Shown here: piece after piece, positions 6,123-40,238 of the stretch
Numbering within the stretch: the stretch's first letter is position 1
Layout of the letters: every line of letters begins with the position of its first letter
Source: Candidatus Lustribacter sp.
Lineage (GTDB): Bacteria > Vulcanimicrobiota > Vulcanimicrobiia > Vulcanimicrobiales > Vulcanimicrobiaceae
Length of the DNA stretch: 64,000 bases
Assembly (NCBI GenBank): GCA_965277805.1
Contig: OZ255842.1
Coordinates: 3,840,001 to 3,904,000, forward strand
Direction: 5' to 3'
Position numbers and translations under genes: made by a program
The notes under the pieces: generated by a model
Seen by the model: the letters and a program-made list of their open reading frames with translations, nothing else
Database searches by the model: none
What the model was told of the DNA's origin: nothing

Positions 6123-6911
6123 TTGCGAACGTTGCTGCCCGTCGTGAAGGGCCGGCGCTATGGAAGCCATCCCGTGATCCAGGCGGTCGGGACCCGCTCT
6201 CCGGTGCCGTCCACTCAAGCCACCTTGACTGTGCGTTTGGCCGATTGGCCATCCGTACAGTTGCCGGCGGACGCCATCGCGCCGGCGCGACCCCAGCCGG
6301 CCGTCGGGCCGCTCGCGCCGGCCGCCCCGGTCGTGCGGCACGTCCCGGCCGGGCCCGCGGTGGCTTTACGGACGAGCCCGGCGGCAGCGGCCCGGATCGC
6401 CGCCGGCCTCCACCAGATCCGCACCGTCGACGGCCGGCCGCTAGCGTACCCGAGCCAGGATCTGCGGGCGATCGAATCGGCCGACCCGCACGAGCACGGC
6501 CAGACGCACGGCCTGACCGAGCACGTCGGCAACGACCTGGCGGCCGACATCCGGCGCCTGCAAGACGAGCCGCAGATCCGGGCCGCCGGCGGCTATACAG
6601 ATGAAGCATGTGCGCAGCTGGCCACCGATCGCACGATCGCGAACCCGGCGAACCAGCGCGCCATCGCCGCCTTCCTCGCCGATCCCGAGCGCTTGAGGAC
6701 GGCGCTCGAGCGGGTCGATGCCGGCCGGACGGTCGGCACGACGGCCACCCGCGCCGATCTGGAAGCTGGACGACCGGTGCTCATCCCGGGACGAACCGCG
6801 ACGGTCGTCCTCATCAAAGACCGCACCTTTCCCGAAGGCTACCGCGTGCTCACCACCTATCCGGATACCCGGCCCGCCGAGGTCGATGCCCGAGGGAGTC
6901 GCCAACAATGA
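6123..6911 (+). CDS. Putative RNase A-fold toxin (bacterial CdiA-CT RNase A domain), start uncertain (TTG 6123 or GTG 6144/6174)
   Basis: C-terminal ~135 aa: DL..IE..HGLTEHVG..IRRL..P.IRAAGGY.D..A..VVL..GYRVLTTYP. Pro/Ala-rich N-terminus. Confidence 0.78.
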   Translation: MRTLLPVVKGRRYGSHPVIQAVGTRSPVPSTQATLTVRLADWPSVQLPADAIAPARPQPAVGPLAPAAPVVRHVPAGPAVALRTSPAAAARIAAGLHQIRTVDGRPLAYPSQDLRAIESADPHEHGQTHGLTEHVGNDLAADIRRLQDEPQIRAAGGYTDEACAQLATDRTIANPANQRAIAAFLADPERLRTALERVDAGRTVGTTATRADLEAGRPVLIPGRTATVVLIKDRTFPEGYRVLTTYPDTRPAEVDARGSRQQ

Positions 6912-7752: not shown

Positions 7753-8475
7753 TCAGAGCAGCGCGGCCCCGAACGCAAGCTTGCACGCCTCGTAACATTC
7801 GCAGGCCGCCGCGTTGAGCAGCGCGCGGTCGAGCACGGCGACCGCGCCGCGCTGATACGAGATCGCGCCCAGCGCCTGCAACGCCTCGGCCGCCTCCGAA
7901 ACGCTCGCCCGGCGCACGCCGAGCATGATGGCCAGGAACTCGTGCGTGAGCACGAAGCCGGCACCGCCGACGCGGTCGTGCGTCATCGAGAACCAGCGCG
8001 CGCAGCGCTGCTGGATCGAATGCTTGACGTTGCACGCAGCGAACTGCTGCGCGCTGAACAACGTGGCGCGCACGTTGCGCCGAATGCCGCTCGCGAACGA
8101 CGTACTGGCGGCCATGCGCGCTTCGAACCGTCCGAGCGACATGCGCCGCACCGAACCGCGCACCTGACAGAACGACGTACGCTGCGCGAATTTCGAATCG
8201 AGCGCCGCGTCGGATTCGGCGAAGCTTTCGTTGCCGACCGTTCCCACTTCGACGTCATCGCCGTTCTCGAGCGTCGCGACCACCGAAAGCACGGCGTCGA
8301 TCGGAAAGTCGACGAAGCCGATCGGGGCCCCGGCGACGTGCGTGCTGTCATGCGCTTCGAGCACGACGATCGTAAGGTCGCCCTCGAGATCGACACGATC
8401 GCTCAACGGCAACGAGTCCAACAACCGGTTTCCTGACACAAAGGACGGTGCGGGGGGCGCCTGGCCGTGTTGCAC
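7753..8475 (-). CDS. Crp/Fnr family transcriptional regulator (start approximate)
   Basis: NRLLDSLP, EVGTVGNE, ACNVKHSIQQRCARW and LTHEFLAIMLGVRRASVS HTH. Confidence 0.9.
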   Translation of the reverse strand: MQHGQAPPAPSFVSGNRLLDSLPLSDRVDLEGDLTIVVLEAHDSTHVAGAPIGFVDFPIDAVLSVVATLENGDDVEVGTVGNESFAESDAALDSKFAQRTSFCQVRGSVRRMSLGRFEARMAASTSFASGIRRNVRATLFSAQQFAACNVKHSIQQRCARWFSMTHDRVGGAGFVLTHEFLAIMLGVRRASVSEAAEALQALGAISYQRGAVAVLDRALLNAAACECYEACKLAFGAALL

Positions 8476-8613
8476 GGCATTCCGATCAGTAAAACGCGCA
8501 CGTGGCAAAGTGCCGAAATGCGGACGTCTTGGGTGACTCACTATAGCACACCCGATGCGCCCAGCGCGCATATGCCGCGTTTTGCGCTTGCGTTGGTCAG
8601 GCCGGCGACGGCC

Positions 8614-9411
8614 TCACGACCAAGACGGAATCAAGAACGCTTCCGGGCAACCGTCCTCATCGAGCGGGGTGTGCGTCAGGGCCGGCCCTGAGGGAAATGT
8701 GCTGATTGCGCTCGTGTGAAGCGTGATCCAGAACTGCGTGAGGATCGCTCGTCCCGTGCTATCGGTCGCACATTCCAATTGGAGCGCTCGGCCATCGGCT
8801 GTGGCGAACGCCTTTTGGAAAGCAGCGTGGGCGTCATCGCGCGCGATCGTCGCGCCGGCGTGGGCCAACAGATACCGGCCGAACGCGCTGTCGGCGACGG
8901 CTTGACGCATCTGCAATTCCGTCGTAAAAAACTGTTCCGGATCGAAGCCGAAACACTGCACGTGCTTATCGTATTCGTGGGTGAGCAAACTGGTACTCAG
9001 CTGCGGCATCACGGTCGCGAGCTGCGCTTCGAGATCGCGGGAGAGCGGCGGCGGCTCGTCGCTATGATGGAGCAAGTCGCAGCCGCGCGCAAACCATTGC
9101 TGCACGGGCACGTTGGCCTTGATCAGCGCTTGTGGCATTGACGGCCACAATCCGTGCACGCCGATCAGCGGCGTACGAGCCTGCCCGGCACTGCACCGGT
9201 CGTGAAGGCCGGGCCCGAGCAGCGGGCCGTCATCGACGCTGCAGATCCCCGGCTGCCACGTCAATGCAAAGGTGTAAACGTCGAAATCCGGGTACCGGGC
9301 CGGCACGAGTTGCAGCGGCGCCGCGCTCGCCAGCGCGGTAACGGTCACGATCCCGGCCGCGCACGCGAGAAGCGTCAACAAGCGCCGGCGGAGCTTTTCA
9401 AGCACGCCCAT
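8614..9411 (-). CDS. Secreted ribonuclease T2 family protein
   Basis: Signal peptide; ALTWQPGIC, VHGLWP (CAS I) and HEYDKH (CAS II). Confidence 0.9.
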   Translation of the reverse strand: MGVLEKLRRRLLTLLACAAGIVTVTALASAAPLQLVPARYPDFDVYTFALTWQPGICSVDDGPLLGPGLHDRCSAGQARTPLIGVHGLWPSMPQALIKANVPVQQWFARGCDLLHHSDEPPPLSRDLEAQLATVMPQLSTSLLTHEYDKHVQCFGFDPEQFFTTELQMRQAVADSAFGRYLLAHAGATIARDDAHAAFQKAFATADGRALQLECATDSTGRAILTQFWITLHTSAISTFPSGPALTHTPLDEDGCPEAFLIPSWS

Positions 9412-9453
9412 GCCGATCACTTATGCGTTACGTCCTAAACAACTTCCAGGAAG

Positions 9454-14788: not shown

Positions 14789-15151
14789 ATGATTATCGGG
14801 TTGGGGATCGATTTGGCCGAAGTCGAGCGCTACCAGTTCAGCGATGCCGAGCGCGAGCGCTTCGCCCGCAAAGTATACACGCCCGAAGAGATGCGCTACG
14901 CCATGCGGAAACGTCATTGGGCCGAGCGGCTGGCGGGGTTCTTCGCGGCGAAAGAGGCGACGCGCAAGGCGTTCGGGCACGCGATTCCGTGGCGCGACGT
15001 GGGCGTCACCCACGAACGCTCGGGAAAGCCGACCATTGCGCTCTACGGTAAAGCCGCCGAACTGATCGAGCGCCGCGGCGTCCGGTCGATCCACCTAACG
15101 ATCACGCACACGGCCACGACCGCCGCGGCCGTCGTGATCCTGGAGGGCTGA
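14789..15151 (+). CDS. acpS: Holo-[acyl-carrier-protein] synthase
   Basis: MIIGLGID, FAAKEA.RKA, SGKP, ITH. Confidence 0.95.
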   Translation: MIIGLGIDLAEVERYQFSDAERERFARKVYTPEEMRYAMRKRHWAERLAGFFAAKEATRKAFGHAIPWRDVGVTHERSGKPTIALYGKAAELIERRGVRSIHLTITHTATTAAAVVILEG

Positions 15152-16650
15152 TGCGCGCCGTCACCGCCGCACAAATGCGGGCCATCGATGCGGCCGCGGT
15201 CGCGCGCGACGGCGAGGTCGACCTGATGCGGCAGGCCGGCGCCGCCATCGCCCGCGTCGTCCCCCGCTACCGCCAAGACGGGCCGATCATCGCACTCGCC
15301 GGCAACGGCAACAACGGCGGCGACGCCTTTGCGGCGCTGGCGCGGCTCGAGGGCCGGCGCATCCTCTACTACGATCCCGGCGCCAGCTGGGGCGCGGCAC
15401 GCATGCACGCCTTCCAGCGCGCCCGTGCCAGCGGCGTCGAATTGCGGCGCTATCCGGTCAGCGCTGAGGACCTGCGCGACGCCGGCTTGCTGCTCGACGG
15501 ACTGCTCGGCGTGAACGCGCGTTTGCCGCTGGATGCGGCGACGGCGGAACGGGTCCGCGCGATGAACGATGCGCAGGTGCCGATCCTCGCGCTCGACCTC
15601 GCGACCGGCTGCGATCCGACGACGGGCGCACTCGGTGATCCCCACGTGCGCGCGGTCGCGACGGTGGCGCTAGGGCGGCCAAAACTCGGATCGTTCCTCG
15701 ATCCGGGACGCGATGCGACCGGCGACTTGTGGTGCGCGCCCATCGGCATGCACGACGGCGACGCGCGCGGCATCGATCTCGCATCGTACGTGCTGACGGC
15801 GGATGCGTTCGATGCGCTGCGCCCGAAGCGCCCGAACGAATCGGAGAAGCGCAGCGCGGGGGCGCCGCTCGTCATCGCAGGTTCGGAACAGTTTCCCGGC
15901 GCGGCAATTTTGTGCGCGCTCGGCGCCGCTCGCGCCGGCGCCGGCTACGTCACCGTCGCCGCACCGGCGGCGGCCGCCGCGGCGCTGCGCGCCCATCTCA
16001 TCGAACAAGTCGTGGTGACCTACGACGAGAACGACCCCAAAGCGGCGATCGCGGCGATTCTCGATTTGAGCAACCACTGCAACGCGATCGCGATCGGGCC
16101 CGGACTCGGCCTCTCGGACGAAATGGGCGAGATCGTGCGCGGCGTGATGAAGGCAACGCCGTTGCCGATGGTCGCGGACGCGAGCGCGCTCTTTCACATC
16201 GGTAAACACTTACCGGAGTTTGCAGAAAAGCCGCTCGTTCTCACACCGCATGCGGGCGAATTCGCACGGCTCTCCGGGAAAGGCACGGTCGAGCCGAGCG
16301 AACGGCTTCCCCGCCTGCGCGCGTTCGTGGCCGAGTACGGCATCGCAACGCTGTTGAAAGGGCGCACGACGCTGATCGCCGATCGTACGACCGTGCACGT
16401 CAACCCAACCGGCACGCCCGCGCTCGCAACCGCCGGCACCGGCGACGTTCTCACCGGCATCATCGCAACGCTGCTCTCGCAAGGCCTCGCACCGCTCGAT
16501 GCCGCGCGTGCCGGCGCGTTTTGGCACGGGCTTGCCGGCTCGTGCGCGGCGGCCGATCGTCCGGTCGGCGTTATCGCGCGGGACGTTGCCGACGCACTCG
16601 GCCGCGCATCCGACGTCGCGCCCGACGACGATCCAATCCGTATTTGGTAA
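15151..16650 (+). CDS. nnr: Bifunctional NAD(P)H-hydrate epimerase/dehydratase
   Basis: GNGNNGGD, DGLLG, IGPGLG, DASAL, TPHAGEF, TAGTGDVL. Confidence 0.95.
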   Translation: MRAVTAAQMRAIDAAAVARDGEVDLMRQAGAAIARVVPRYRQDGPIIALAGNGNNGGDAFAALARLEGRRILYYDPGASWGAARMHAFQRARASGVELRRYPVSAEDLRDAGLLLDGLLGVNARLPLDAATAERVRAMNDAQVPILALDLATGCDPTTGALGDPHVRAVATVALGRPKLGSFLDPGRDATGDLWCAPIGMHDGDARGIDLASYVLTADAFDALRPKRPNESEKRSAGAPLVIAGSEQFPGAAILCALGAARAGAGYVTVAAPAAAAAALRAHLIEQVVVTYDENDPKAAIAAILDLSNHCNAIAIGPGLGLSDEMGEIVRGVMKATPLPMVADASALFHIGKHLPEFAEKPLVLTPHAGEFARLSGKGTVEPSERLPRLRAFVAEYGIATLLKGRTTLIADRTTVHVNPTGTPALATAGTGDVLTGIIATLLSQGLAPLDAARAGAFWHGLAGSCAAADRPVGVIARDVADALGRASDVAPDDDPIRIW

Positions 16651-16655
16651 CGCGA

Positions 16656-17819
16656 TCAGCGCGCGATGCCGAATCCGGCCGCCTTGACCTTCGGATCGTC
16701 GGAGGCCTCCAAGTAGTCGCGCAGTGTACGCAGAAACACTCCGAATGCGGTGGCACCGAGCAGCCAGAGTTGGCGATCGTCGCTGCTTTCGTCCGGCAGC
16801 GTTTGCATACGATCCCTAGCGTACATCACGCGCAAGTCTTCGACCGCTAAACGGATGAACGCCAACAACTCAAGCTCTGCCGGACGGCCCGGAAAATCGC
16901 TTACCTCGCCGGCGGCGTAACGCGCGAGCCAGCGGGCCAGCGCACCGTAGTCCTTGGGATCGACGCGGCTCACGCCGGTTCTCGGATGCACGCGATCGCG
17001 CGTTGCTTCGACTTCGGCGACGAAATCGATCGAACGCGCCTGCGCTTGTACCTCGACGCCCGAGGCTTGCATCGGCGCAGCCCGTTCCGTCCGCTCAGCC
17101 GCTACGAAATCCAGTAGCACCGGGCCTTCGGACGCGGCTAATGTCGAGAACGCGAGATCGAGAACGGCGCGCTGTTCGCGAGCGTCGTTACGGTGGCCGA
17201 CGGAGATGCCGAACGGAAACGGCACCCACACCGTGCGCGGCGGTTTGATGCGCAGCGAATGTTCGCGCACCAAACTGAGCGCCACCGTGCTCAATCCCCG
17301 TTCTTCCAAAACCCGTGCGATCACACCGACCGTGTGAGTGCACAGCGGTCAAGTCGGCGTGAGTAAGACGACGTCGACGCCGTCTTCGAGCAGGTGCGCC
17401 GCTACTTCGGGCGCCATCGCGTTCTTGATCGGCGCGACGTCGCGTTGCGCACCCATGAACGAGTAGAAGCGCGGGGCGAGTTCGCCGATCTTGCCCTCGG
17501 CCACCATCTCGCGCAGGCGGTCGATCGGATACACCACGTTGGGGTCGGCCATGATGCCGGTGCGGTCGAAACCGAGGCTGGTGTGGCTCTGCAAGAGATC
17601 CGCACCATCGGTCGCCGACGGAATCATCCGGTACGTCGGATCGCCGGCCACGAACGGTTTGTCGCCGGGCAGATGAACGCCGGCCGTCGTGACGATCGCG
17701 ACGCGCGATTGGGCGAGCGGTTTCGCCGGCCGATGGAACGGCGTCGACGTGACCTCCTCGATCGCGAGCGAGAGAATTCCTTGACGCGCGGTTTCCGAAA
17801 GGCGGTCGAGCGACGGCAT
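16656..17819 (-). CDS. Selenocysteine-containing GrdB/PrdB-family protein (387 aa; UGA at 17349-17351 read as Sec)
   Basis: ORFs 17349-17819 and 16656-17324 are in one frame, joined as LLTPT-U-PLCTHTVGVIARVLEERG. Family motifs KPL..SRVAIVTTAG, DPNVVYPIDRL, YSFMG and PPR..VPFPFG; AAGGA RBS. Confidence 0.88.
17313..17345 (-). promoter_or_regulatory. Bacterial SECIS-like hairpin
   Basis: mRNA after UGA-CCG reads CUGUGC-AC-UCACAC-GGUCG-GUGUGA-UC-GCACGG. The apical loop starts with G, 17 nt after the UGA. Confidence 0.75.
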
Positions 17820-17939
17820 CTTGTTCCTTTCGTGAAGCGGGGAATAGTCTCCGGTTCACCGGTCGACTTTTGTCGTCTAAGAATTTGAAAGCACGAATCG
17901 GGTCGCGTTGCAGCGTTCGTTTCGGGCATAATAGACGGG

Positions 17940-19415
17940 ATGCGGATTTCGGCGACCCAGTTGTTCATCGGCGTGATTCTGGCCGGCCAGTTCATGGCCA
18001 ACATGGATACGGCAATCATCAACGTGGCCACACCCTCGATCGGCCACACGCTGCACGCCTCGGGCGCCGAGCTGCAACTGACCGTGTCGGTGTACGTGCT
18101 CGCCACGGCGATGCTGTTGATCACCGGCGCGCGACTGGGAACGCTTTACGGTTACCGTCGCATCTTCTTGATCGGGCTCGCCACGTTTACGCTCGCCTCG
18201 CTCGCCTGCGGGATCGCTCCCAACACGCTGACGCTGATCGTTGCGCGCATCGTGCAAGGTTTCGGCTCGGCGCTGCTCGTCGCTCAAGTGATCAGCGGCA
18301 TCCAGCGCACCTTGACCGGCCACGCGCGCACCAAAGCGATCGGCAGCTACACGCTGACGCTTTCGCTCGCGGCCGTCGTCGGGCAGATTCTCGGCGGCTG
18401 GCTTATCACGGTCGACCTCTTCGGACTTGCGTGGCGGCCGCTGTTCCTGATCAACGTGCCGATCGGTATTGCCTTGTTCGTGCCGGCGCTGATCGTCATG
18501 CCGCGCGACGAACCATTCGCCGGCCCGCGGCCGTCGCTAGACTGGCTCGGCGTCGCGCTCCTAGGCGGCTCGATGCTGTTGATGGTCTTCCCGCTGACCG
18601 TCGGCCGCGAGATGCAGTGGCCGCCGTGGACGTTCGCGTCGCTCGTCGCGAGCGTGGCGGGAACGGCCGCGTTCTTCCTCTGGCAGCGTCATCTCGCCGC
18701 GCTCAATCGCAGCCCACTGCTCAACCTCACGCTCTTTCGCGAACCCGGCGTCGTTCCGGGACTCGGCACGCAGATGCTCGCACGAGTCACCTACTTCACG
18801 CTTCTGTTCGTGCTTGCACTCTTCGTACAGAACGGTCTCGGGGAGAGCGCGCTCGTCTCGGGCCTCTCGCTGATCTTCTGGGTGCTGATGTATGGTATCG
18901 CCGGGCCGATCTACCCGCGTTTACCGCACCGCATCGCGATTCTCTGCGGCTCGGTGGGCGCGCTGATCACCGCAACGTCGTTCGGCGCTACCGCAGTCGC
19001 TGCAGCGTTCGATGCCGCCAACCCGTGGTTGATCACGTTTTTACTCGGCGCCGGCGGCTTCGGTTTCGGACTGCTGCAAACCGCAATCACCACGCAGCTA
19101 ACCTCGGCGATTCCCAAAGAGCGCGCGCCCGACTTGAGCGGCGTGATCGCTACGACCGTGCCGCTCTGTGCGGTCATCGGCATTGCGACTTACGGCAGCA
19201 TCTACATCGAGCTCGCCGCACCCGGCGGCCGGGTCGCAGCGATGCATGCGTTCGCGATCGTCAACGCATTCTTCGCGGTGACGGCGGCGGCCGCTGCGAT
19301 GACGGGCCGGAGAGCCGCGCTAGGAAGCGAACGAGTACGAGCGTTGCGGGAGCATGCGCAGCGTCTCGATCTCGTGGAGAACGTCGAGCGGAATCGTAAC
19401 GTCGGCGTAGCGTGA
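17940..19415 (+). CDS. MFS transporter (DHA2-like, 14 TM)
   Basis: MDTAIINVATP, GARLGTLYGYRR, RIVQG, WRPLFLINVP. Confidence 0.9.
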   Translation: MRISATQLFIGVILAGQFMANMDTAIINVATPSIGHTLHASGAELQLTVSVYVLATAMLLITGARLGTLYGYRRIFLIGLATFTLASLACGIAPNTLTLIVARIVQGFGSALLVAQVISGIQRTLTGHARTKAIGSYTLTLSLAAVVGQILGGWLITVDLFGLAWRPLFLINVPIGIALFVPALIVMPRDEPFAGPRPSLDWLGVALLGGSMLLMVFPLTVGREMQWPPWTFASLVASVAGTAAFFLWQRHLAALNRSPLLNLTLFREPGVVPGLGTQMLARVTYFTLLFVLALFVQNGLGESALVSGLSLIFWVLMYGIAGPIYPRLPHRIAILCGSVGALITATSFGATAVAAAFDAANPWLITFLLGAGGFGFGLLQTAITTQLTSAIPKERAPDLSGVIATTVPLCAVIGIATYGSIYIELAAPGGRVAAMHAFAIVNAFFAVTAAAAAMTGRRAALGSERVRALREHAQRLDLVENVERNRNVGVA

Positions 19416-36811: not shown

Positions 36812-37589
36812 CCGCTTCCTCGCCTGGACGGCCTTCGTTTGCTTCATGCTGATGGCAGCACCCGTAAGGGGAGCGAGTGACGGACTTCCGCAGATCGCTT
36901 CCGGTGGACGAACGCCGTACGTCGCCGTCATCGTGTGGCACGACGTCGTTCCGGCGAAGGAACTTTGGTTCGACACCCCGCTCGATACCTTCAAAACGCA
37001 GCTCGCCGCGATCGCGCGCGGCGGCTATCACGTGATCACGCTCGAGACGTTGCGCGCGCACCTCGAGCACGGCGCACCGTTACCGGGCAAGCCGCTCGCC
37101 TTGACCTTCGATGACAACGGCCACGGCATCTACGAAAACGCCTTCCCGTTGCTACGGCAGTATCATTATCCCGCCACAATGTTCGTGCACTCGAACTTCG
37201 TCGGCACGACGACGCACGGCAAGCGGCACACGACCTGGCCGCAGTTGCTCGAGATGTCGCGCAGCGGCATCATGACGATCCAGAGCCTCACCGCCAATCA
37301 TCCGCCCGATCTGCGGCAGCTCAGCGACGCGGATGTGGTGCACGAGCTCACGCTCTCGCGCACGTCGCTGCAGTATCACCTCGGCCATAAGATCTACGCG
37401 CTCGTCTATCCCGAAGACAACTACGACGAACGGCTCGAGAAGCTCGCCGCAGCCAACGGCTACGACATGGCGTTCATCGAGGATTGGGGCAGCGCCGGCG
37501 AATCCGCCAACCTGCTGGAAATCCACCGCTACTCCGCCCTCACCCGCTTCCCCCAAGCCCTATCGGACGTCGCAGCCGGCCATAGCTAA
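36804..37589 (+). CDS. Polysaccharide deacetylase family protein, secreted
   Basis: Signal peptide, IVWHD, LTFDDN, TWPQL.EM, SLTANH, VYP. Confidence 0.85.
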   Translation: MVTRFLAWTAFVCFMLMAAPVRGASDGLPQIASGGRTPYVAVIVWHDVVPAKELWFDTPLDTFKTQLAAIARGGYHVITLETLRAHLEHGAPLPGKPLALTFDDNGHGIYENAFPLLRQYHYPATMFVHSNFVGTTTHGKRHTTWPQLLEMSRSGIMTIQSLTANHPPDLRQLSDADVVHELTLSRTSLQYHLGHKIYALVYPEDNYDERLEKLAAANGYDMAFIEDWGSAGESANLLEIHRYSALTRFPQALSDVAAGHS

Positions 37590-40018
37590 TTTGTGCGGAT
37601 CGAAGCGGCTAACTTGACTGCCTGATCTTCATCGTCATGCGCTCCACGTTCTAGGAGCATTGCTCGCAACGCGCTGGAAAGACCCGTGTCCAGGGCGCTC
37701 ATCAGAAGCTCACGAGGCCGCGCCTCGGTTTTCCCGAGAACAATGCCGAGTTGCGAAAAACGGCGTTCGACGAAGCCGGTCAAACGAGCTGCTGATTCAA
37801 GCTCGCCGTTTAGGGCTGCCACGGTCGCCAGATGCTGCAGCGCGACCAAAACGATTAGCTGGTCGCTCCCGCGCGCCGCCGCGACCGCCATCGTGCCCGC
37901 GGTATGCGCTCCCGGCAGGTCGCCCGCGACGATGCGATATCCCGCAAGATTGCAAAGGAGGTACATCTCATCTCGTCGCGAGCCGGAGCGGTTCGCATCT
38001 TCGAGCGCCGCCTCTGCAGCGGCGATTGCTGCCGGCACGTTACCAGAGAGGTATTCGACGTCGGCCAAATAGTGCCCGATATGCGAAAGATAGAATTCTT
38101 CGTCAAGTGCCCTGCAGAACTCGAGAGCAATTAAAAAGTCGGCTCGGGCGTCTGACAGTCTTGCGCAGTCCTTTGCAATGCACGCACGTTCCATATGCGT
38201 GTGCATTGCCAGGCGAGGGCGGCGCTTCGGCGTTTTCTCGATGCCTGCGAATGCCTGTTCGAGTACGCGCTCAGCCTGTTCGAACTCACCCAATTGCCGT
38301 AACCTCGAAGAGAGGTTAATGAGGAGCATTACCTCTCCATCCCCACCAAGCGCCCGATCGAAATCAACGGCGCGGCGTGCAAGCTCCACGCCTGCAGATC
38401 GTTCGACAATACGAGATCGAAATTCCAGGACGTCAACAACCGTCCAAGACACCTCGTTTAAGTCGACCGTTGGGGAGAGCTCATCGAAATAGCCGCGTAA
38501 CTCTTCATCAAGTCCGCTCTCGTACCAGAGCGAGCGCAGTCCGCAAACGATCTCCAGCGCGTCGGCTTGGCGGCCTCTTTCGCCCATCGTCCACCGAAGC
38601 GCACTTCGAATATTATCTAACTCAGGATAGAACGCGCTGCGCCAGTCGGAGCGGTTCGTAAAAGAGCGCAACCCAACGGCATGCCGGGCCAAGCCGGCAA
38701 CCCATGAGGCATGCCGATCGGCAATGGCTCGGTGTTCGCCGGCTTCCTCGGCCTTTGCCTTGGCAAATGCGCAATGAACCTGCAACATTGAGTACCGCGG
38801 AATCTCTTGAGCCAGATTGCATTGGACGAGCGCCTTTTCGAAGAGCGCACTCATTGCGTCTCGCACGTTCGATTCGGAAAGCGCATCGTCAGAACATACG
38901 GTTTGCGCCGCTTCAAGGGTCCATCCGCCGGAGAACGCGCTCAGCCGTCGATAGAGTGTCCGCTCGCTAAATCCGAGCGAGGAGAAGCTCCAGTCCAGTG
39001 TGGCTTGCATCGTTCGCTGACGAGGTGGCAGATCGCGGTTGCCAACCAGATTTAGTCCGACGCTTTTCGAAACCTCATCACGTAGTGCTTCGAGCCCGCC
39101 TGGAGTAACACGCGATGCGACGATTTCGATCGCGAGCGGGATTCCGTCTACCGCCCGGCAGATGTCGGCGATCGCAGATAGCCGGACCGGCATTGCAACC
39201 TCCGGCGCCATCACGCTAGCCCTTTCGATGAACAGCTGAACGGCCGGCGAGTGTCGTAAGACTTCGACATTGCTCGTAGCCGGTGGAATCGGCAACGGCG
39301 CGAGTGGATAGACGGCTTCGCCTGCGATGCGTAAGCGCTCTCGGCTGGTCGCCAAGATTGCCACCGAAGGACACGCTTCGCGAAGTCTGCTCGCGAGCGT
39401 TGCGGCGGCTCCGATGACGTGCTCGCAATTGTCAAGCACGATCAAGAGATCTCGCTCGCGGAGCGCAGCGGCGATACGTTCGACCCCTTTGGCACCGGCT
39501 CGGACATCGATGCCAAAAATTCCGCCGACGACGGTCGCTACGTCAGCCTCATTACTTCGCGACCCAAGATCGGCAAACCAGAGGCCGTCTTTTTTCCTTC
39601 CCCCGAAGCCGTGCGCGACCGCAAGTGCCGTGCGTGTCTTTCCGACGCCTCCGTCTCCCGTGATGGTAACGATCTTCAAGCGCCCCAGCATATCGGAAAT
39701 GGCGGCCACATCGCCTTGCCGTCCAAAAAATGAGTCTGCTTCAACGGGAAGGTTTGACATCGTTCGCGCCGGCTCCGACGCCCTGTTCTGCGCGGGCTTA
39801 CGCTGCGCCGACGCCTCGAAGTCCGCCCGCTCGATGCCCGACAGGCCCAATACATCGGCCAGCATCGCTACGGTTGCCCGGTGAGGAACTCCGCGGATAC
39901 CGCGTTCGTACGCGCTCACCGCAGCCGGACTGATTTGAGCGAGTTCCGCTAGCGCTTCCTGCGACAGGCTCGCTTCGAGGCGCCACTTCCGCAAGAGCAG
40001 CCCGAACGTAAACGACAC
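37586..40018 (-). CDS. XRE-HTH + STAND (NB-ARC-like) ATPase + TPR regulator
   Basis: LSQEALAE HTH, GDGGVGKT, LIVLDNCEH, TSRE, DGIPLAIE, C-terminal TPR-like helices; visibly more AT-rich codons. Confidence 0.9.
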   Translation of the reverse strand: MSFTFGLLLRKWRLEASLSQEALAELAQISPAAVSAYERGIRGVPHRATVAMLADVLGLSGIERADFEASAQRKPAQNRASEPARTMSNLPVEADSFFGRQGDVAAISDMLGRLKIVTITGDGGVGKTRTALAVAHGFGGRKKDGLWFADLGSRSNEADVATVVGGIFGIDVRAGAKGVERIAAALRERDLLIVLDNCEHVIGAAATLASRLREACPSVAILATSRERLRIAGEAVYPLAPLPIPPATSNVEVLRHSPAVQLFIERASVMAPEVAMPVRLSAIADICRAVDGIPLAIEIVASRVTPGGLEALRDEVSKSVGLNLVGNRDLPPRQRTMQATLDWSFSSLGFSERTLYRRLSAFSGGWTLEAAQTVCSDDALSESNVRDAMSALFEKALVQCNLAQEIPRYSMLQVHCAFAKAKAEEAGEHRAIADRHASWVAGLARHAVGLRSFTNRSDWRSAFYPELDNIRSALRWTMGERGRQADALEIVCGLRSLWYESGLDEELRGYFDELSPTVDLNEVSWTVVDVLEFRSRIVERSAGVELARRAVDFDRALGGDGEVMLLINLSSRLRQLGEFEQAERVLEQAFAGIEKTPKRRPRLAMHTHMERACIAKDCARLSDARADFLIALEFCRALDEEFYLSHIGHYLADVEYLSGNVPAAIAAAEAALEDANRSGSRRDEMYLLCNLAGYRIVAGDLPGAHTAGTMAVAAARGSDQLIVLVALQHLATVAALNGELESAARLTGFVERRFSQLGIVLGKTEARPRELLMSALDTGLSSALRAMLLERGAHDDEDQAVKLAASIRTN

Positions 40019-40048
40019 GTGGCTCCATCTTCGCCGCCGCGATTCCGC

Positions 40049-40067
40049 GACGATTGTATGAATCGTC
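40049..40067. promoter_or_regulatory. Palindromic operator candidate
   Basis: GACGATT-GTATG-AATCGTC in the divergent spacer. Confidence 0.4.
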
Positions 40068-40238
40068 TGTGTTCCATTCCCCGTCGCCCCGATATCGTGG
40101 AGGACACAGACGCTACGCTCTGTTCTTTACGACTCGCTGCTTTTCCGCGGAGGTCATGCCGTGACTCCTAGTTTCAACGCGCCCTCGCGCACGACCGCCG
40201 CCGCATCACCACCCACTACCGCACAAGGAGCATCCAAA

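Follow-up and report, generated by a model that had tools for sequence, protein, structure and literature searches.

The locus and its reading frame

The 64,000-nucleotide stretch of DNA analysed here (the window) comes from Candidatus Lustribacter sp., a member of the Vulcanimicrobiota (GenBank assembly GCA_965277805.1, contig OZ255842.1, positions 3,840,001 to 3,904,000 of the forward strand). It carries a gene of the GrdB/PrdB superfamily in which an internal TGA is very probably read as selenocysteine (Sec). The minus strand from 17819 to 16656 is a single frame, whose sole internal stop is the TGA at 17351..17349 (codon 157). Calls of open reading frames (ORFs) with translation table 11 give two pieces of this frame, 17349..17819 (156 amino acids, aa) and 16656..17324 (222 aa). 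Reading through the TGA yields a product of 387 aa, ...VVLLTPT-U-PLC-THTVGVIARVLEE..., in which the context of the Sec site is LLTPT-U-PLC-THTVG. A preliminary description of the locus, made from the sequence, had reported two same-frame ORFs split only by TGA 17349-17351, and the 387-codon frame bears this out. The main features of the gene are as follows.

16659..17819, minus strand: predicted complete coding sequence (CDS) of the 387-aa selenoprotein, with the start codon ATG at 17819-17817
16658..16656, minus strand: terminal stop TGA, just outside the CDS range
17349..17351, minus strand: in-frame UGA, codon 157, the U of the U-P-L-C motif, assigned from conservation of the stop and from Cys homologues
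17825..17829, minus strand: AAGGA, a candidate Shine-Dalgarno-like site 5 nt upstream of the ATG, read from the sequence

Residue 1 of the protein aligns with residue 1 of full-length homologues (MPxLDxL). A consensus scan of positions 16400-18100 for promoters and terminators returned no site of either kind. The G+C content of the window is 65%.

Domain architecture and family assignment

The protein consists of two domains, the first of which contains the Sec residue.

17109..17819, minus strand: N-terminal domain of alpha/beta type (residues ~1-237), with homology to PrdB and to GrdB's C-terminal half
16659..17108, minus strand: C-terminal helical domain (residues ~238-387), private to a subfamily of ~390-aa proteins

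The AlphaFold2 (AF2) model, built on an alignment of 38 sequences, has a mean pLDDT (predicted local distance difference test) of 90.6 and a pTM (predicted template modelling score) of 0.88. It places Sec157 between a strand (150-154) and a helix (160-173), with residues 259-382 forming a bundle of helices; judged from the high pTM, the helical domain appears to pack on the alpha/beta domain. The conserved columns of the tail are E269, D328, Y333, W352, T357 and G360, of which D328, Y333, W352, T357 and G360 are invariant in comparison with 16 full-length homologues. The preliminary description had noted an extra helical tail of ~150 aa, and both strings that it quoted, AFIRLAVEDLRVMY and WLLGATAFG, are present in the read-through translation. 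It had further regarded the tail and the absence of partner genes as unusual. Both are indeed present, but neither is peculiar to the window gene, as both are common to the entire ~390-aa subfamily.

Searches with the helical domain and with the complete model gave no lead to a function. Pfam, at E<=5, found no family in the tails of five out of five homologues, and Foldseek found no match of the AF2 model in the Protein Data Bank (PDB) at E<=0.001, the top TM score being ~0.2. ESM Atlas showed low recognition of the 152-aa tail (1917), and its first matches were inconsistent (PEPcase, EcoEI_R_C and hypothetical proteins).

The only Pfam family matched is PF07355 (GRDB), with 60.2 bits against a cut-off of 22, and the match runs from residue 19 to residue 156 against profile positions 207-347 (the final 141 of 347). 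TIGR01918 ('various_sel_PB') is passed marginally (68.1 bits against 65.45). The best NCBIfam match is TIGR04483, PrdB, with 139.4 bits and E = 1.3e-40; it aligns residues 20-225 with profile positions 11-216 of 238 and so spans the Sec site, but it does not reach the equivalog cut-off of 300. The equivalog models of GrdB, GrdF and GrdH score 61.8, 75 and 68.4 bits against cut-offs of 602.2, 800 and 775, and their matches cover only profile positions ~205-414, well short of the full length of ~430 aa. The motif of the superfamily is present as U157-P-L-C160 at the conserved active-site column. From the cut-offs passed and failed across PF07355, TIGR01918, TIGR04483 and the GrdB models, the protein is a member of the GrdB/PrdB superfamily, as had been proposed from the sequence, and does not belong to any characterised reductase.

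Two further properties separate it from a typical PrdB. PrdB is a single-domain protein of ~240 aa, whereas the window protein has 387 aa and an extra helical domain; and the prd cluster is missing. Relatives were collected in a scan of one genome per species, which gave at least 595 related stretches, the best 80 of which were retained for all locus counts (L001 and so on). No PrdA, GrdA, GrdE, thioredoxin or thioredoxin reductase is found among the 47 window ORFs scanned, and none of the 150 immediate neighbours at the 80 loci is one of these proteins; prdA and other prd genes are likewise missing from the window and from these neighbours.

These data bear on the possibility that the gene encodes a genuine PrdB of D-proline reductase, or the B protein of a glycine, betaine or sarcosine reductase, with the partner genes lying elsewhere in the genome. 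PrdB is the best NCBIfam match (TIGR04483, E = 1.3e-40, residues 20-225), JGI labels Cys homologues as 'D-proline reductase (dithiol) PrdB', and the accessible text of selenoproteome papers uses the name 'Proline reductase PrdB' (PMC2398784, PMC1088965). Set against this are the scores themselves (139.4 bits against 300 for PrdB, and 62-75 against 602-800 for GrdB, GrdF and GrdH), the length of 387 aa with a conserved extra domain against a profile of 238 positions, the match to just the last 141 of 347 PF07355 positions, and the lack of a partner in the window or in any of the 150 genes immediately next to the 80 loci. The hosts are also mostly lineages that are not known for Stickland fermentation, which counts against a genuine PrdB, and we consider this explanation very unlikely. 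With no PrdA/GrdE-type pyruvoyl partner, GrdA or PrdC nearby and with scores far below the equivalog models, the protein is most likely neither a D-proline nor a glycine reductase. The absent partners and the sub-threshold PrdB score make a redox role outside the Stickland reaction a reasonable proposal.

Sec and Cys at codon 157

A stop codon occupies the Sec column in all 80 retained loci, as TGA in 79 and as TAG in one, and the two halves of the protein are in the same frame in 80/80 of them, across many phyla. The lone TAG is in Geodermatophilus chilensis strain B12 (L018:4845-4847, NZ_NVPT01000170.1), whose gene is otherwise intact and keeps the hairpin described in the next section. The use of TAG for Sec in the Geodermatophilaceae was reportedly first described by Mukai et al. 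in 2016. According to the accessible text of a further paper, genomes of this family contain a tRNA-Sec whose anticodon is CUA, together with selenoprotein genes that have TAG as the codon of the Sec site (PMC5330540). The stop in the Geodermatophilus gene thus follows the local Sec codon, which is strong independent support for Sec at codon 157. The gene would add the long PrdB-like form to the UAG-Sec genes of the Geodermatophilaceae.

Proteins in the databases show the corresponding Cys forms. A word-indexed search returned 137 proteins, 120 of which are covered by a scripted grouping. Cys stands at the site in 31 of the 120; 29 of these are 376-428 aa long, and the other two are P0083 (229 aa) and P0094 (328 aa). 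Another 57 are 'hypothetical proteins' of 214-237 aa that start a few residues after the Sec column and appear, from this position, to be the downstream halves of miscalled Sec genes, and the remaining 32 are other forms, mostly a 311-aa family of Bradyrhizobiaceae. In the alignment with full-length homologues (A1), all 16 have Cys at the Sec column in a CPxC motif, and T154, C157, P158 and C160 are invariant.

An exhaustive profile search over 1.84 billion cluster representatives produced 4501 matches at E<=0.001; with stricter limits the count falls to 2344 (E<=1e-10) and to 505 (E<=1e-30). Among the best 150 representatives, which were re-aligned by script, 24 break off immediately ahead of the Sec column, 59 start immediately after it and 67 span it. 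The breaks of the first two groups at the Sec column are the signature of miscalled Sec genes. Cys is found in 43 of the 67 spanning representatives and, where the spanning protein is of the long form (>=340 aa, n=24), in 21, the others having Gly (1) or a gap (2); non-Cys cases at this column are mostly short-form relatives. The alternation of Cys and Sec that the preliminary description had asked of the homologues is therefore seen in the stops of 80/80 loci and the Cys of 16/16 full-length homologues. The refuting conditions that it had named mostly turn out in its favour; of the long forms 21/24 have Cys, and of all spanning representatives in the wider superfamily 24/67 are without it.

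In a number of database proteins (P0134, P0142, P0151, P0164, P0166, P0216 and others) the residue that falls exactly on the Sec column is Gly, Ser, Arg or Trp. These residues are single-base neighbours of TGA, or are the product of TGA under genetic codes 4 and 25, and the non-Cys calls could be either real substitutions or Sec codons that the gene caller translated under another code. At one locus, in a metagenome-assembled genome (MAG) of the Clostridiales, a second and more distant paralogue lies ~5 kb from the first (L073:3004-3201, minus strand) and is interrupted in frame, at the Sec column, by a stop of its own (...LLTPG*PLCHQSVG...).

The SECIS hairpin

Directly downstream of the UGA lies a putative bacterial selenocysteine insertion sequence (SECIS).

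17321..17337, minus strand: predicted SECIS core, a 6-bp stem UCACAC/GUGUGA with the 5-nt loop GGUCG, 17 nt in total
17313..17345, minus strand: whole two-stem hairpin, which includes the lower stem CUGUGC/GCACGG and is the minimum-free-energy (MFE) structure

In the lower stem, CUGUGC (17345-17340) pairs with GCACGG (17318-17313), and in the upper stem UCACAC (17337-17332) pairs with GUGUGA (17326-17321) around the loop GGUCG (17331-17327), the two stems being separated by a 2x2 internal loop. This hairpin is the MFE fold of the 47 nt that start at the UGA; its core begins 11 nt past the UGA, and the distance from the UGA to the loop is 17 nt. The pairings, the loop and the 17-nt spacing are exactly those of the preliminary description. 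The minimal SECIS of Escherichia coli fdhF has the same size and spacing as the conserved 17-nt core. A bacterial SECIS is described, in the accessible part of one paper, as a 3' stem-loop with a G within its small apical loop (PMC1088965), and the window hairpin has this form: it stands directly 3' of the UGA, and its small apical loop contains the G.

Covariation was examined in the window and the 80 loci, which give 81 sequences of the Sec form and 80 distinct rows (alignment A2, 66 nt). The 66 nt around the Sec codon align without gaps across the 81 sequences, and the loop G (column 28, window position 17330) is invariant in 81/81. Pairing cells make up 79.2%, against 72.9% in shuffled alignments, and two-sided changes occur in 8 of the 12 pairs. 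None of 500 shuffles reaches the observed covariation score or percentage paired, and every slid register scores lower. The SECIS that had been claimed earlier, placed directly 3' of the UGA and having G in its loop, thus gains a covarying stem. The signal is located in the upper stem (columns 21-26 with 32-37), five pairs of which are given here as counts over the 80 rows.

Pair 25-33: A-U 41, G-C 37, G-U 2, unpaired 0
Pair 23-35: A-U 64, G-C 11
Pair 22-36: C-G 74, U-A 4, A-U 2
Pair 21-37: G-C 53, U-A 5, A-U 2, unpaired 20
Pair 26-32: C-G, invariant

In pair 25-33 the opening base of a Thr/Ala codon is linked with the third, synonymous position of a codon two further on (mostly Gly/Ser), a coupling that constraint on the protein alone would not be expected to produce. 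The lower stem is less general. Its pairs 13-45 to 16-42 fail to form in 19 to 63 of the 80 rows, whereas G17-C41 pairs in 75/80 and 18-40 in 72/80 (67 C-G, 5 U-G); the lower stem seems to be specific to near relatives of the window, with only its top two pairs widely conserved.

The conserved stem also bears on whether UGA157 might be read through without selenium, by a near-cognate Trp or Cys tRNA, as could happen had this lineage lost the Sec pathway, or whether the UGA and hairpin might serve mainly as a selenium-dependent switch of translation. At the Sec column some database homologues do have Trp, Gly, Arg or Ser, which would suit such a reading. The Trp and Gly calls may, however, be TGA under other genetic codes, and a lineage that loses Sec normally ends up with Cys (TGC/TGT) in its place, as happened in the Cys forms. 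The stem is moreover kept by compensatory changes, and in the two closest relatives, L001 and L002, the TGA is retained and the upper stem is identical. We regard read-through without selenium, or a mere switch, as very unlikely, and retain the reading of codon 157 as Sec.

Translation past the UGA

Over codons 158-387 the ratio of non-synonymous to synonymous substitution rates (dN/dS) is 0.11 in the comparison with L001 and 0.24 in that with L002; codons 1-156 give 0.04 with L001 and 0.31 with L002. The codons after the TGA are thus under purifying selection. Elsewhere in the window TGA is an ordinary stop, and indeed the commonest one, ending 20 of the 38 Pfam-supported genes, so that the recoding is local to codon 157.

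That the TGA is a true stop, leaving two genes (156 and 222 aa) or a pseudogene that a nonsense mutation has inactivated, is extremely improbable: table 11 does give two ORFs, the second of which can start at GTG 17324, where many database 'hypothetical proteins' of 214-237 aa also begin, and the window shows no Sec machinery, but the eight codons from the TGA to the GTG encode P-L-C-T-H-T-V-G, with P158 and C160 invariant in relatives, the two halves share a frame in 80/80 loci from many phyla, the Cys-form homologues are continuous, dN/dS after the TGA is 0.11-0.24, and the two halves together form single domains in the confident AF2 model. Separately initiated genes, which the preliminary description had named as an outcome that would speak against it, need not be invoked.

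A scan for other TGA-split frames in the window listed 14 candidates, none of them convincing by eye on motifs and frame. The filter also missed the true gene, because the G+C content at third codon positions (GC3) falls under the threshold right after its TGA, and the scan is no evidence about other selenoproteins in the window. In a Hydrogenedentota MAG, the selenoprotein gene is preceded, ~40 nt upstream, by a 91-nt class-II tRNA (L068:447-538). This tRNA is a tRNA-Arg(tcg) according to ARAGORN, and it scores 27.2 bits with the Rfam tRNA-Sec model against a gathering score of 47. As a tRNA-Sec it was rejected as sub-threshold; from its anticodon loop, CUCAAAA, it is probably a class-II tRNA of the Leu type.

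Genomic context and hosts

The gene is flanked by a convergent YjeF/Nnr gene (15151-16650, plus strand) and by a divergent gene for an MFS transporter (17940-19415, plus strand), in keeping with the earlier statement that no prdA, grdA, grdE or thioredoxin gene is adjacent. Clustering of the neighbourhoods (1047 ORFs from the 80 loci) found no family shared between phyla. Synteny is local to a clade and is seen only in the Dehalococcoidia, with genes for a cobyrinic-acid amidase-like protein, a metallo-beta-lactamase, PriA, a zinc alcohol dehydrogenase and a GNAT protein. The closest relative, L001 (Candidatus Lustribacter sp., Vulcanimicrobiota), is 87% identical and collinear, with uvrA followed by ligA and MFS genes and then yjeF, and both here and in the window the selenoprotein gene lies between the MFS gene and yjeF. 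In L002, a Vulcanimicrobiota MAG with 68% identity, the gene (L002:3226-4386) stands instead between ligA and the MFS gene. The gene thus moves as an independent unit, as its position in L002 differs within otherwise conserved synteny; between L002 and the window this amounts to a local transposition of a single gene.

Two relatives have distinctive downstream neighbours, each seen at one locus: a DUF5940 protein in L060 (9228-10691) and a protein with CCG-domain and 4Fe-4S features, resembling heterodisulfide reductase, in L046 (9303-11354). These neighbours might hint at partners.

Carriers of the gene include Vulcanimicrobiota, Methylomirabilota/Rokubacteria, many Dehalococcoidia, Tectimicrobiota/Entotheonella, Actinomycetota and Acidobacteriota, as well as several Pseudomonadota, Desulfobacterota, Hydrogenedentota and one Clostridiales MAG. 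The long form is a large subfamily, with Sec in most members, that occurs across many phyla of bacteria from soil, sponges and the sea. Clues to an aerobic lifestyle in the window are a weak LigB-like match and a small glyoxalase-fold protein, and the evidence for such a lifestyle of the host is thin.

Elsewhere in the window, the product of a gene at 6123-6911 (plus strand) carries at its C-terminus a CdiA-CT RNase A-like toxin domain (PF18431, 1e-14), and a gene at 8614-9420 (minus strand) encodes a protein of the RNase T2 family (PF00445), with a Crp-type regulator (7753-8571) between them. The ~3 kb at 36995-40160 hold, by a crude gene call, one short ORF of high GC3 (37855-38130, minus strand), which has no Pfam match.

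Interpretation

Taken together, the locus very probably holds one monocistronic gene for a 387-aa protein with Sec at position 157, decoded through a SECIS, and the product would be a self-contained PrdB-like reductase that is neither a proline nor a glycine reductase. UGA157 would be decoded by the bacterial Sec pathway, the SECIS inside the CDS exposing its invariant loop G and recruiting SelB with Sec-tRNA(Sec). As in GrdB and PrdB, the selenolate could then attack a bound substrate, and Cys160 could resolve the adduct, giving a selenenyl-sulfide, which a cellular dithiol such as thioredoxin would presumably re-reduce. The helical domain may take over the binding of the substrate.

Several observations weigh against this interpretation. 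No SelA, SelB or SelD is found among the 47 ORFs scanned in the 64-kb window, where the only RNA genes found are tRNA-Glu and tRNA-Met, and neither selA, selB, selD nor a tRNA-Sec gene lies within 8 kb of the gene in any of the 80 relatives. Sec decoding in the host genome is therefore an inference. The fold of the single RNA sequence is not significantly stable given its composition (z = -1.74, with 13/200 shuffles equal or better), which is why the case for a SECIS rests on covariation; and not all of the stem covariation is independent evidence at the RNA level, since His/Arg and Val/Thr/Ala changes also separate protein clades. Among the best 150 profile matches, the 24 of 67 spanning representatives that are without Cys have Gly (7), Ser (5), a gap (4), Trp (2) or Arg, Asp, Glu, Thr, Asn and Leu (one each), so that redox chemistry at this site is not universal in the wider superfamily. 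Finally, we infer how catalysis proceeds, what reduces the enzyme and what the tail does, and neither gene context nor the PDB, Pfam or ESM Atlas gave a clue to the substrate.

We propose further, with about even confidence, that the ~390-aa proteins now named 'PrdB' are not subunits of a proline reductase but distinct, self-contained selenoenzymes of oxygen-tolerant bacteria from soil, sponges and the sea, that their helical domain replaces PrdA or GrdE, and that they carry out a reductive cleavage or other redox reaction. An abundant selenoprotein family of the environment would then be named after a clostridial Stickland enzyme without having the obligatory partner of that enzyme, and a correct assignment of its function would show what selenium serves in oxic soils and oceans.

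There are also consequences for annotation. The gene is miscalled as two 'hypothetical' ORFs, and 83 of the best 150 representatives are halves that break at the Sec codon; recognising this codon repairs the annotation of a family with 2344 representative clusters (E<=1e-10). The Vulcanimicrobiota lineage is a probable user of Sec, and the window gene would, if the reading is correct, be the first evidence that this phylum (Eremiobacterota/WPS-2) decodes selenocysteine. A literature search that did not cover subscription journals found no paper that links Eremiobacterota/WPS-2 to Sec.

Comparison with known systems

The closest characterised relative is PrdB (TIGR04483) of Clostridium sticklandii and Clostridioides difficile, with which the window protein shares a homologous fold region, a UxxC motif at the equivalent site and a SECIS directly 3' of the UGA. 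It differs in its additional conserved helical domain of ~150 aa and its score below the cut-off, in that prdA, prdC and other prd genes are absent nearby in the window and the 80 relatives, and in its hosts, among which are Vulcanimicrobiota, Methylomirabilota, Dehalococcoidia, Tectimicrobiota and Actinomycetota in place of amino-acid-fermenting Clostridia. Two recent reviews, in their accessible parts, name PrdB and GrdB as selenoproteins of the UxxC type and treat no enzymes other than the clostridial ones (PMC13188914, PMC9312934).

With GrdB, GrdF and GrdH the protein has in common the Sec motif UxxC and scores above the cut-offs of PF07355 and TIGR01918. Unlike GrdB, it is without the N-terminal half, its equivalog scores are about one tenth of the cut-offs, and there are no grdA, grdE, grdC or trxAB neighbours in the window or at the 80 loci. 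The second Cys of the UxxCxxC motif given for GrdB in the accessible text of PMC13188914 is also absent, the window protein having U-P-L-C-T-H-T.

A local likeness exists to the CPxC site of glutaredoxins and protein-disulfide oxidoreductases, in which a hydrophobic strand is followed by T-P-T-[U/C]-P-x-C where a helix starts. Kinship was rejected: the only matches of profile A1 to PDB sequences fall on this stretch and are not significant (E = 0.19-0.9), and Foldseek gave no match with a thioredoxin fold.

Selenoproteins named PrdB have been catalogued in sea water before, and in this respect the preliminary description had overrated the novelty of the gene, as 'PrdB' UxxC selenoproteins of oxic sea water have been published since 2005 (PMC1088965). 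In the Sargasso Sea, 'Proline reductase PrdB' (pfam07355, UxxC) was represented by 42 Sec forms and 1 Cys form and was among the most abundant families (PMC1088965, Zhang et al. 2005), and the Global Ocean Sampling (GOS) data gave 235 Sec and 110 Cys forms in 38 samples (PMC2398784, Zhang & Gladyshev 2008); the accessible text of the GOS paper contains no mention of PrdA. These proteins resemble the window protein in belonging to pfam07355, in the UxxC motif, in their abundance in oxic samples and in the excess of Sec over Cys forms, and a marine Cys-form homologue of the window protein is found in Tara and JGI sources (P0073, 395 aa). They differ in that the accessible text of these papers does not mention an extra domain, and the window member comes from a Vulcanimicrobiota genome of soil type. 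As the papers give, in these parts, counts and not sequences, the identity of the Sargasso and GOS family with the ~390-aa long form is likely but unproven.

The same literature search, again without subscription journals, found no paper that treats 'PrdB-like' proteins or the long form as a separate family, and 'GrdB-like' was found only for Synergistota, in an unrelated sense. Within the papers that could be searched, the long, partner-less form has thus not been set apart from PrdB. The family and the mechanism of recoding are both known, and the window gene is an additional member of this family, not a new type of system.

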